Positions 57,001-60,000 of a DNA stretch of 64,000 nt are shown one piece after another. Made by a program: the position numbers. The stretch lies in NCBI RefSeq assembly GCF_030384885.1, contig NZ_CP128613.1; one strand, written 5' to 3'. Positions within the stretch are counted from its first letter, which is position 1, and every line of letters begins with the position of its first letter. This DNA comes from Escherichia coli (GTDB taxonomy: Bacteria > Pseudomonadota > Gammaproteobacteria > Enterobacterales > Enterobacteriaceae).

Positions 57001-60000
57001 CTCAATAACCGGGCACGACATAGACTACACCTCATGGAAAAATTGCTGATAACTGGAATCACTGAAACCCAGCAGCATAGGCTTCCCGGGCGCACAGAGC
57101 AATGGGCGTTTGATAATTGCAGGCATTTCAGTCATTAATGCCGCCGCAGAGGCCGCATCGGTGATTTTATTGCGGGTGGTTTCATCCAGTTTACGCCAGG
57201 TTGTACCACGGGTATTGAGTAACGCTTGCCAGCCTAATTCGTTGATAAAACCGTTCAATAATCCGCTGTCCAGCCCATCAATGCGGTAATCATGAAAACG
57301 ATAGGCGATGTTATTGGCTTCCAGCCAACGGCGAGCCTTTTTAATGGTGTCACAATTTTTGATGCCGTAAAGTGTAACCATAATGAATCCTTTTTCGATT
57401 TATGAGAATAAATACTCATTTAAGGGTGAAAACATTTTGCCTGCAAATGATTATCAAGAAATATAACATTATCGAAGTATTCAAATTAACAACTATTAAA
57501 TAATATTAAACATTTTTAACGTAAGCATTAAGAATATTCATCTTGTTATCTGCCTGTATTTTAAACAGAATTAAACCAGTACTAGATTCCGTATGAATAT
57601 CTCGAAATGTTGCTGTGTATCACATACAAATCATTACTGCAGGACCATAGTATTTACATAAAGTTTGTCCCCCGGAGGTAGTCATCGCAGCAATCGAGTA
57701 AATTAGCTTCACCACGGTATATTGTTTCCGTAGAATACCCATAATTATAAGAGAGGTTGTTATGATTGAACGTGAACTGGGGAACTGGAAAGACTTTATC
57801 GAAGTTATGCTTCGTAAGTAATTCCTGAGACAAAGTACAAACAGAAAGTACCTGCTGAACAGGTTCTTTATCGGAAAGTTGAAAAAGGCGACACATTGGT
57901 ATGTCGCCTTTTTAATTGCTTATTCCGGGCGTGGCTTCAGCGGGAAGCGGCGGCGCACCAGCACAAAGAACAGCGGCACGAAGTAAATAGCCAGAATCGT
58001 GGCCGAAATCATCCCGCCCATTACGCCAGTACCCACCGCATGCTGGCCACCGGAACCGGCCCCAGTGCTGGTTGCCATTGGCAATACGCCGAAGATAAAG
58101 GCCAGAGAGGTCATCAGAATCGGACGTAAACGCTGACGGCAGGCGTGGAGCGTCGCTTCAAACAGGTCGTGGCCTTTTTGGTTCATCTCGTTAGCAAATT
58201 CGACGATCAGGATGGCGTTTTTCGCCGATAAACCAATCACCGTTAACAGGCCTACCTGGAAGTAAACGTCGTTTTCCAGCCCGCGCAGCCAGGTTGCCAG
58301 CAGCGCGCCGATAACGCCCAGCGGCACGACCAGCATTACCGAGAACGGCACTGACCAGCTTTCATACAGCGCCGCCAGACACAGGAATACCACCAGCAAT
58401 GAAATGGCATACAGCGCCGGAGCCTGCGCGCCGGAGAGTCGCTCCTGATACGACATCGCCGTCCATTCCAGACCAAAGCCGCTTGGCAACTGCTTCACTA
58501 ACGATTCCATAATATCCATTGCAGTACCGGTGCTGACCCCCGGCGCGGCTTCCCCGACAATCTCTACCGCTGAATAACCGTTATAGCGTTCCAGACGCGG
58601 CGAGCCTGTTTCCCAGCGTGAGGTCGCGAAAGCAGAGAAGGGGACCATGCCACCATCTTTATTTCGTACATACCAGAGATTGATGTCATCTGGCAGCATG
58701 CGATATGGCGCAGCGGCCTGCACATAGACTTTCTTCACGCGACCGCGATCCATAAAGTCATTCACATAGCTTGAACCCCACGCGGTTTGCAGCGTGTCGT
58801 TAATATCGTCGATAGCAACGCCCAGCGCCTGAGCTTTACGCTGATCGATATCAATCTGCAACTGCGGACTGTCGTCAAGGCCGTTATGGCGTACACGGGT
58901 TAACTCCGGATTTTCCGCCGCCAGAGCCAGCAACTGGTTACGTGCTGCCATCAGCGCATCGTGACCCGCACCAGCGTGGTCCTGCAACTCCATATCAAAA
59001 CCCGCAGAACTGCCAAGGCCGCTAATTGCTGGCGGGCTGCTGGCGATAACGCGAGCTTCTTTAATCTTATTAAATTCCTTCGTTGCACGTTCGATAATGG
59101 CAAACGAGGTGCCGGTCTTACTGTCGCGTTCGCTCCAGTCTTTCAGGCGGATAAACATTCGTGCCACGTTTTGCCCGTTACCCCCAGGGCCAGAACCAAC
59201 GGTGGCAAACACCGACATGATATTGTCTTTTTCATGGGTGAAGTAATACTTCTCGATTTGCTCAACGACTTTCAGGGTCTGTTGCTGAGTTGAACCGCTG
59301 GGTAATTGCACCGAGGTAGTGAACATGCCACGGTCTTCCAGTGGCAAGAACGACGTCGGCAAACGCAGGAACAGGAACACCATGCCGCCAAGCAGCAGGA
59401 CATAAATCACAATCCAGCGCAGGCTACGGTGGAGAATTTTCGCCACCCCTTTTTCGTAGCGTTCGGCGTTACGATTAAACATCTGGTTAAACCAGGCAAA
59501 AAAGCCTTTTTGCCCGTGATGCTCACCTTTTTTCAGCGGCTTAAGTAGCGTGGCGCACAGAGCCGGAGTGAGGATCATTGCTACCAGTACTGACAGCACC
59601 ATCGCCGCAACAATGGTAATAGAAAACTGGCGATAGATAGCTCCGGTGGTGCCACCGAAGAAGGCCATTGGCACAAATACCGCCGACAGCACCATCGCAA
59701 TCCCGACCAGTGCCCCCTGGATCTGCCCCATCGATTTACGTGTGGCTTCGCGAGGAGTGAGTCCTTCCTCACTCATAATACGTTCGACGTTTTCCACCAC
59801 CACGATGGCGTCATCCACCAGCAGACCGATCGCCAGCACCATCGCGAACATGGTTAAGGTGTTGACGCTGTAACCGAAGGCGTAAAGTACGGAGAAGGTT
59901 CCCATCAACACCACCGGCACGGCGATAGTTGGTATCAGCGTGGCACGGAAGTTTTGCAAGAACAGATACATAACGAGGAAAACCAGGGCGATAGCTTCCA

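Follow-up and report, generated by a model that had tools for sequence, protein, structure and literature searches.

Escherichia coli makes several microproteins of fewer than 50 amino acids, including MgtS, MntS, AcrZ, SgrT, and CydX, which bind and modulate a larger protein. AzuC, a 28-amino-acid protein with an amphipathic helix, is encoded on the dual-function, Hfq-dependent RNA AzuCR, and both its partner and the function of its RNA have been published. The gene ypfM was predicted in 2001, and its 19-residue product is among the shortest conserved and demonstrably made bacterial proteins. YpfM resembles AzuC in being very small, in its predicted amphipathic helix, and in its short stand-alone transcript, but the two proteins have no sequence similarity and the 3' UTR of ypfM is unconserved. 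It is also similar to the former group of microproteins in the general mode of partner binding that we propose for it, whereas most of those proteins are membrane-spanning or longer. To what is known of ypfM we add the constrained residues and helical face of the peptide, a comparatively validated proximal promoter (P1), and a candidate for a second, regulated promoter (P2). Mutagenesis, partner pull-downs, and the search for a regulator can be aimed directly at these residues and the two promoters.

Organization of the ypfM locus

The window, a stretch of 64,000 nucleotides of E. coli contig NZ_CP128613.1, has ypfM between yffB (57025–57381, minus strand) and acrD (57920–61033, minus strand), such that ypfM points away from yffB-dapE and toward the end of acrD. 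A preliminary description had placed a 19-codon open reading frame (ORF) in an AT-rich gap of about 540 bp between these genes, with GAGAGG before it and a strong bidirectional terminator after it, and all of these features were borne out. The gap is 538 bp in size with a GC content of 33.3% (51.7% in the window), falling to only 24.4% across 57400–57600. Features of the gap are as follows, with the strand in parentheses.

57382–57600 (-): AT-rich, poorly conserved spacer; GC 18–25%, low cross-genus conservation
57605–57658 (+): putative P2, a conserved promoter-like module; conservation map and alignment
57682–57702 (+): third conserved block, TCATCGCAGCAATCGAGTAAA, between P2 and P1; conservation map and alignment
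57708–57736 (+): P1, sigma-70 promoter TTCACC-17 nt-TAGAAT, predicted start near A57743; consensus scan
57749–57756 (+): Shine-Dalgarno sequence AAGAGAGG, with GAGAGG at 57751–57756; read from the sequence
57762–57821 (+): ypfM CDS, 19 codons plus TAA, translated from ATG to TAA as MIERELGNWKDFIEVMLRK
57801–57920 (+): match to Rfam RF01409 (STnc250) spanning the last seven ypfM codons, the 3' UTR, and the terminator; whole model covered
57822–57881 (+): body of the 3' UTR, with a small hairpin at 57850–57864; poorly conserved between genera
57882–57913 (both strands): two-way intrinsic terminator common to ypfM (+) and acrD (-); terminator scan

By itself, an ORF of 19 codons is unremarkable because the gap contains about a dozen ORFs of at least 20 amino acids. 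It is conservation, and not the presence of an ORF, that raises ypfM above chance. When translated, the ORF yields the same sequence as the annotated "protein YpfM" of strains 2013C-4282 and K-12 (RefSeq WP_001386977.1; b4606 and YP_001165325.1 in K-12). The locus in the window is the same gene as that of K-12, with the same position between acrD and yffB and identical peptide, ribosome-binding site, P1, and distal block. The two spacers differ by 19 substitutions in 538 bp, every one of which is outside of the conserved blocks; they fall in the AT-rich core, the spacer and leader of P2, the 3' UTR (five positions), and the loop of the terminator. Across complete E. coli genomes, the ypfM region was found in 5,425 of 5,426. 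One natural isolate has an IS1 inserted in the 5' end of ypfM and the gene is therefore dispensable, at least in that isolate.

Selection on the YpfM peptide and a predicted helix

Comparisons were based on 80 enterobacterial DNA loci anchored on yffB because a peptide of 19 amino acids is below the minimum length (20 or 40 amino acids) of protein tools. In 70 of the 80 loci, an orthologue of ypfM is divergent from yffB and encodes 19–20 amino acids (22 in Hafnia). Orthologues occur in Enterobacteriaceae as well as in Dickeya, Hafnia, some Yersinia, and one Erwinia. The gene order acrD-ypfM-yffB is kept in 67 of the 70 loci with the ORF and the remaining three lack acrD. Linkage is not absolute, since Dickeya and Yersinia artesiana have ypfM without acrD and two Erwinia have acrD without ypfM. 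For this reason acrD is no obvious partner of ypfM, and the idea that AcrD is the obligatory partner of YpfM is unsupported.

Purifying selection on the amino acid sequence of YpfM is strong. Of 71 sequences, 68 retain the start codon, length, and stop codon, and 11 of 19 residues are invariant among the 68 orthologues of 19 residues. Among 46 unique orthologues, the ypfM frame has a pN/pS of 0.155. Of the five other frames, four give 1.55–1.96 and the one with the same third positions gives 0.33. Changes cluster at the third position of codons, with a summed entropy threefold that at either of the other two positions (4.1, 4.0, and 12.6 for positions 1, 2, and 3, respectively). The conservation check proposed in the preliminary description thus revealed constraint at the level of amino acids. 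The protein is also made. Intact, N-formylated (fMet) YpfM was identified in E. coli by top-down mass spectrometry with 100% coverage, and was seen by DIA and PRM as well as in an earlier study by Schmidt et al. (PMC12529367). YpfM and AzuC were the two small proteins detected reproducibly only in samples from low-Mn minimal medium (PMC12529367). Hence ypfM is an already known locus, an annotated E. coli gene with a product seen by mass spectrometry, and its RefSeq annotation, purifying selection, and peptide detection support the earlier proposal of a micro-ORF that is translated and has a ribosome-binding site and terminator of its own. We consider it highly probable (roughly 90%) that ypfM is a stand-alone, single-gene locus of a 19-residue cytoplasmic microprotein.

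Three other readings of the ORF fare poorly against these data. The locus entered early catalogues as an orphan promoter/terminator pair and as an Hfq-bound RNA, and is an sRNA family in Rfam, which would fit a noncoding small RNA (STnc250) that contains the 19-codon ORF by chance. That reading is refuted by the pattern of selection, namely the low pN/pS in the ypfM frame only, the three-base periodicity of variation, and the preserved start, length, and stop, together with the published detection of the peptide, and its probability is close to nil. Another reading is a leader peptide or upstream ORF that acts on the gene downstream through attenuation or translational coupling. YpfM is of a size typical of leader peptides and ypfM has a strong ribosome-binding site, but the arrangement of genes contradicts it. 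No co-directional gene is downstream of ypfM; what comes after the ORF is a strong terminator and, beyond it, the 3' end of the convergent acrD, and the peptide has a conserved amino acid sequence without runs of a regulatory codon, making this role very improbable. Finally, the longest ORF in the gap is one of 80 codons on the opposite strand (57654–57896), antisense to ypfM, and length could recommend it as the real gene. Comparative data refute this, in that its frame has a pN/pS of 1.57, 17 of 71 orthologous sequences interrupt it with stop codons in the part that overlaps ypfM, and it has no annotation in the RefSeq genomes examined; we give it virtually no credence.

As a cytoplasmic microprotein, YpfM is predicted to form one amphipathic alpha-helix, judging from its sequence pattern alone. 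Its hydrophobic moment is 0.546 versus 0.268 ± 0.135 in shuffled sequences, 3% of which reach 0.546. Invariant hydrophobic residues are on one face and variable residues are opposite. We predict that the invariant stripe of I2, L6, W9, I13, M16, and L17, with F12 at its edge, would dock on a membrane surface or on a partner protein of larger size and modulate it, and that variable positions 4, 8, 11, and 15 would face solvent. YpfM has 8 charged residues among its 19 and averages -0.12 on the Eisenberg hydrophobicity scale, and so cannot span a membrane. A small membrane protein or type I toxin was rejected because no hydrophobic segment is long enough for the membrane.

Proximal and putative distal promoters and the AT-rich spacer

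P1 is the best-supported promoter of ypfM, of a conserved sigma-70 type with a predicted start. Its hexamers match 9 of 12 consensus positions at a spacing of 17 bp. Across genera, the TAnnnT and TTC cores are kept and the spacer varies in sequence while being constant in length. A list from SELEX with RpoD holoenzyme has ypfM, with the same hexamers, under a peak (PMC3946193). Further downstream, GAGAGG is separated from the start codon by 5 nt (TTGTT), and AGAGAGG is kept in nearly all enterobacterial orthologues in the alignment.

A second, distal promoter, probably activator-dependent, would give a longer ypfM mRNA of ∼255 nt. Putative P2 consists of AAATGTTGC (57605–57613), six nucleotides, TCACAT (57620–57625), 20 nucleotides, CATAGT (57646–57651), five nucleotides, and CA (57657–57658). 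TCACA occurs in 60 of 71 sequences, most of which have the full module at constant spacing across genera. The center of a 22-bp site (57606–57627) is at 57616.5, 41.5 bp upstream of A57658, which exactly matches the geometry of a class II CRP/FNR-type site (-41.5). The proximal half, TCACA, is perfect, whereas the distal half (GTTGC/ATTGC) matches TGTGA at only two of five positions, though it is itself conserved. The papers examined that name ypfM or yffB report no binding of CRP or FNR there. Judged by eye, sites for sigma-54, sigma-32, LexA, Fur, and MntR were also considered for the distal block and none fits well. The transcript predicted from P2 is 256 nt in the window and 227 nt in Salmonella, the latter of which would match the size of a ∼220-nt band on Northern blots. 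The third conserved block, TCATCGCAGCAATCGAGTAAA, could belong to the P2 leader or serve as a site for protein binding upstream of P1.

The preliminary description had suggested that the long AT-rich stretch at 57400–57700 could hold the ypfM promoter or a further small RNA. The first suggestion is right in part, as the promoter-like module of P2 is inside of this stretch but the better-supported P1 is just outside. The second finds no support. Searches of 57400–57700 yielded no Rfam match beyond noise at E values up to 10 and no terminator in the terminator scan, no RefSeq E. coli has an annotated feature there, and the AT-rich core (57400–57590) is poorly conserved across genera. Instead, 57382–57600 probably holds the promoter and 5' leader of yffB. 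A promoter of yffB, TTCATA-16-TTTAAT, has been listed from 57597 to 57570 and binding of H-NS has been flagged for this spacer (PMC3946193). In Salmonella, a yffB::gfp reporter fusion begins at -97 (PMC5137417); if -97 is the yffB start and the leader is of equal length here, the start would be near 57478.

The ypfM mRNA and STnc250

The ypfM transcript is predicted to end at 57882–57913, where the sequence has the properties of an intrinsic (Rho-independent) terminator on both strands. The structure, AAAAAGGCGACA-loop-TGTCGCCTTTTT with a GGCGACA/TGTCGCC stem, has a predicted fold of -17.0 kcal/mol on the plus strand and -18.4 kcal/mol on the minus strand, and UUUUU follows the stem on each. 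It begins 6 nt past the stop codon of acrD and the stem is nearly invariant across Enterobacteriaceae. The total length of the ypfM 3' UTR varies, from 62 to 117 nt among orthologues.

The match to RF01409 reflects this divergence. Its score of 39.4 bits (E = 2e-6) is under the gathering score of 42 because of a 32-nt stretch opposite seven model positions and a diverged middle hairpin. Scores are 40.8 in the E. coli reference, 43.1 in E. albertii, 75.2 in Citrobacter, and 112.9 in Salmonella, and Klebsiella, Enterobacter, and Kluyvera have no match at E values up to 0.001. The locus in the window and STnc250 of Salmonella share the position between acrD and yffB, and the match in the window spans the whole model. 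On this comparison, the locus is orthologous by position and its 3' UTR has diverged. In Salmonella, STnc250 is described as a small mRNA that runs at ∼220 nt on Northern blots. Its levels depend on growth phase, and it was 4-fold enriched in Hfq co-immunoprecipitation (24 vs. 6 cDNA reads; PMC2515195). It was the most abundant among mapped Hfq RNAs in RNA-seq of S. Typhi (PMC2704369). From this literature on Salmonella, the ypfM mRNA is stable and copurifies with Hfq. Association with Hfq suggests that small RNAs would control ypfM posttranscriptionally.

Alternatively, the ypfM/STnc250 transcript could both encode YpfM and act via Hfq as a base-pairing regulator or sponge, in which case it would join AzuCR as a second dual-function RNA of this type. 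Enrichment with Hfq in Salmonella is in keeping with this, as is the terminator hairpin, which ends in the type of U-tail bound by Hfq. Codon 5 and codons 7–10 (GGGAACTGGAAA) hardly vary even at synonymous positions, with the rare glycine codon GGG in 62 of 66 sequences, but this low synonymous variation involves few codons and is nonsignificant given shared ancestry. Likewise, the Rfam model has a weakly supported 5-bp hairpin (CGAAG/CTTCG) in codons 13–18, which is mostly kept and has one double compensatory change, yet it is broken at one pair in 12 of 52 unique sequences. The body of the 3' UTR, the usual place for a seed, is unconserved, with five differences even relative to K-12, and the family match fades from Salmonella to E. 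coli and is lost in other genera. Sittka et al. reclassified STnc250 as a small mRNA (PMC2515195). We therefore regard a dual function as unlikely. It is similarly doubtful that an activator-dependent P2 is the main source of the ∼220–250-nt Hfq-bound species, which would tie synthesis of YpfM to a specific nutritional or metal signal, and that this RNA is a regulator or sponge acting through GGGAACUGGAAA (codons 7–10).

In a fold of 261 nt, CCCCCGG (57669–57675) in the leader pairs with CUGGGG of codons 6–7. Such pairing, had it held, might have explained the fixed GGG codon, but Salmonella, Klebsiella, Kosakonia, and others lack the run of C and the pairing was rejected. Separately, the "sRNA" label of RF01409 in Rfam covers what is really the 3' part of an mRNA.

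Conservation of the ypfM coding sequence

Given its annotation and the published RNA and MS work, ypfM is a previously known and experimentally detected gene whose translation has already been demonstrated. The 538-bp gap between yffB and acrD has a match in 5,425 of 5,426 complete E. coli genomes, with the underlying feature annotated "ypfM: protein YpfM". The gene is b4606 ("uncharacterized protein YpfM") in K-12 MG1655 and the CDS WP_001386977.1 in strain 2013C-4282, which is 100% identical. Relative to K-12, the ypfM ORF, Shine-Dalgarno sequence, and promoter regions are identical and every one of 19 differences over the gap is outside the conserved blocks. 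The Salmonella orthologous RNA, STnc250, was enriched 4-fold by Hfq co-IP and was concluded to be a small mRNA carrying ypfM, an ORF that Wassarman et al. 2001 had predicted (Sittka et al. 2008; PMC2515195). In S. Typhi RNA-seq, it was top in abundance among mapped Hfq RNAs (PMC2704369). A 2025 proteomics study detected intact YpfM by top-down MS (100% coverage, formyl-Met form). In that study, DIA and PRM detected it too, PRM reproducibly only in low-Mn minimal-medium samples, and an earlier detection by Schmidt et al. is mentioned (PMC12529367).

Features of the locus (window coordinates)
57025-57381, minus strand: yffB, one flank of the gap, with dapE beyond it
57605-57658, plus strand: distal conserved module, about 100 bp upstream of ypfM, at constant spacing across genera
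57708-57736, plus strand: proximal promoter
57751-57756, plus strand: GAGAGG (Shine-Dalgarno), 5 bases upstream of the ypfM ATG
57762-57821, plus strand: ypfM ORF, ATG to TAA, translation MIERELGNWKDFIEVMLRK
57882-57913, both strands: terminator hairpin AAAAAGGCGACA...TGTCGCCTTTTT, the best-ranked site in a terminator scan
57920-61033, minus strand: acrD, the other flank of the gap

Sequence reading bears out the layout in the preliminary description, in which a 19-codon ORF with GAGAGG lies in an AT-rich gap of ~540 bp (measured GC is 33.3% versus 51.7% window-wide, and 18-25% within 57400-57600) and is followed by a strong bidirectional terminator. The hairpin folds at -17.0 kcal/mol on the plus strand and -18.4 kcal/mol on the minus strand, its stem is followed by five U on each strand, and it starts 6 nt past the acrD stop codon, indicating a two-way terminator common to ypfM and acrD. 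Because about a dozen ORFs of at least 20 aa share the gap, a 19-codon ORF is unremarkable alone and the case for ypfM as a gene depends on comparative data.

Across 80 loci anchored on YffB (one genome per species), 70 have a ypfM-like ORF divergent from yffB. Carriers include all Enterobacteriaceae genera sampled, save one unplaced isolate, and, beyond this family, Dickeya, Hafnia, two Yersinia, and "Erwinia" mediterraneensis. The ORF is exactly 19 codons plus stop in 67 of the 70 loci and, with the window, these provide 68 sequences in which M1, I2, E5, W9, K10, F12, I13, M16, L17, R18, and K19 are invariant and positions 4 (R/H/T/V/I) and 15 (V/G/D/A/Q/L/N) vary freely. Among 46 unique sequences, the ypfM frame has a pN of 0.078 and a pS of 0.50 (pN/pS of 0.155). 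In four of the five other frames pN/pS is 1.55-1.96, and it is 0.33 in the antisense frame with common third positions. Entropy summed over alignment columns is 12.6 at third codon positions, against 4.1 at first and 4.0 at second positions. At the sequence level, low in-frame pN/pS and third-position variation are hallmarks of a peptide that is translated and under constraint. The amino acid conservation proposed as a check on the micro-ORF is thus found, and the selection pattern, RefSeq annotation, and published MS detection support that reading. An antisense 80-codon ORF (57654-57896) was rejected, with a pN/pS of 1.57 and stops in 17 of 71 sequences.

Proximal promoter and distal module

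A consensus scan of 57300-58000 identified a sole sigma-70-like match, TTCACC-17-TAGAAT, at 57708-57736. Across genera, the aligned sequences retain the TTC and TAnnnT cores but not the sequence of the 17-bp spacer, a pattern typical of a promoter and not of an RNA element; AGAGAGG is kept almost everywhere. The same hexamers were assigned to ypfM beneath a SELEX peak for the RpoD holoenzyme (Shimada et al. 2014; PMC3946193). Transcription from a start predicted near A57743 would yield an mRNA about 175 nt long, of which about 19 nt would be leader.

Farther upstream, the distal module consists of AAATGTTGC (57605-57613), N6, TCACAT (57620-57625), N20, CATAGT (57646-57651), N5, and CA (57657-57658). 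Of 71 sequences, 60 have TCACA, most of them within the full module at fixed spacing. On the plus strand, a -10 hexamer with xATAxT is kept and there is no usable -35. The module includes a 22-bp site (57606-57627) with its center exactly 41.5 bp upstream of A57658, as in class II promoters that CRP/FNR-type proteins activate. The half-site nearer the promoter, TCACA, matches perfectly; the distal half-site, GTTGC/ATTGC, is poor for CRP yet conserved. The RefSeq records examined carry no annotation of the module, and in the literature examined we found no report of CRP or FNR binding that names ypfM or yffB.

Two findings support a real promoter at the distal position. The transcript predicted from the distal start is 256 nt in the window and 227 nt in Salmonella, the latter near the published STnc250 Northern band of ~220 nt, the level of which changes with growth phase (PMC2515195); from the proximal promoter, the Salmonella transcript is predicted to be about 146 nt. 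In addition, a small clade (loci L039 and L058) has lost the proximal -10 and has a near-consensus TTGACT-18-TATTAA at the distal position. We suggest that the distal module looks like a second, activator-dependent putative promoter. Between the two promoter-like elements is a third conserved block, TCATCGCAGCAATCGAGTAAA (57682-57702; consensus AATCAnAGCAATCGGnTAAA), which is an inverted repeat in some genera (CAATCAgagTGATTG).

The 3' end and a possible RNA function

The Rfam STnc250 family, RF01409, matches 57801-57920 full-length, just below its gathering score of 42.

RF01409 scores by locus (bits)
Salmonella locus: 112.9
Citrobacter locus: 75.2
E. albertii locus: 43.1
E. coli reference: 40.8
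Window: 39.4

The Klebsiella, Enterobacter, and Kluyvera loci have no match at E up to 0.001. We consider it improbable that the transcript has a dual function, as mRNA and base-pairing RNA. Conservation of the RF01409 region is limited to the last ypfM codons and the terminator; the body of the 3' UTR is not conserved, which argues against a conserved base-pairing seed there and hence against a conserved sRNA function. Two small oddities within the ORF count in favor of a dual function. Across 68 orthologues, synonymous sites are almost frozen at 57774-57793 (codons 5-10; GAA..GGGAACTGGAAA), being nearly invariant in codons 5 and 7-10, and neighboring codons vary freely. The rare Gly codon GGG is retained in 62 of 66 sequences, AAC in 62 of 62, and AAA in 67 of 68. 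These frozen sites may reflect RNA-level constraint, which is not statistically established. A 5-bp hairpin within codons 13-18 is mostly retained, with one double compensatory change, but one of its pairs is broken in 12 of 52 sequences.

The ypfM/acrD terminator also matches, at 22.9 bits, positions 211-242 of the Rfam CsrC model, which are its terminator part, with a nearly identical hairpin, AAAAAGGCGAC...GTCGCCTTTTT. This likeness is probably convergence of strong terminators, not homology.

The peptide and the upstream spacer

Four YpfM residues are acidic and four are basic, and hydrophobicity averages -0.12; the peptide therefore cannot span a membrane. Treated as an alpha-helix, it has a hydrophobic moment of 0.546 versus 0.268 ± 0.135 in shuffles, 3% of which reach this value. 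On such a helix, the invariant residues I2, L6, W9, I13, M16, and L17 are on one face, with F12 at the edge, and variable positions 4, 8, 11, and 15 are on the opposite face. Judged from residue patterns, the most economical model is that YpfM would be a single amphipathic helix with a hydrophobic stripe that docks on a partner protein or membrane surface, a mode proposed by likeness to known E. coli microproteins.

Gene neighborhood points to no firm partner. Dickeya and Y. artesiana have ypfM without acrD, and two Erwinia have acrD without ypfM. From the fetched ypfM-bearing locus of Dickeya oryzae (L072, 1194-2088), acrD is missing; across ypfM from yffB, matches to a cspA thermoregulator leader and a fluoride riboswitch score 119 and 50.7 bits, respectively. 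In a pig-derived E. coli (L083; NZ_CP062815.1, 1788-2541), IS1A is inserted in the 5' end of ypfM and the annotated "YpfM" has another accession and a replaced N-terminus. This natural disruption indicates that ypfM is not essential, at least in that one isolate.

The preliminary description also allowed for a further small RNA upstream, which is unsupported. The region 57400-57590 is poorly conserved between genera, Rfam and terminator scans gave no match in it, and no RefSeq E. coli has a feature annotated there. H-NS binding was flagged in the ypfM/yffB divergent spacer, and TTCATA-16-TTTAAT was given for yffB (Shimada et al. 2014; PMC3946193). A Salmonella yffB::gfp reporter fusion starts at -97 (PMC5137417); if this is the yffB start site, as the fusion design suggests, and leaders are equal in length, yffB transcription would start near 57478. 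The best reading of the region is a yffB promoter and leader together with a spacer bound by H-NS.

The window strain has a minority haplotype. Its AT-rich spacer (57400-57600) shares 95-99% identity with almost all other E. coli, and only 8 records reach 99%; for the ypfM core, by contrast, 3,898 of 5,425 records reach 99% identity. YffB (57025-57381) differs from that of K-12 at 6 of 118 residues, five of which are within residues 26-52. A past recombination tract across 57400-57600 and yffB is possible. The ypfM intergenic region has been named among host-source biomarkers (PMC11267920). In E. albertii (L003, 4766-4846), a naRNA4 (CssrE)/REP-like element is located 3' of dapE, scoring 82 bits on the plus strand and 52 bits on the minus strand.
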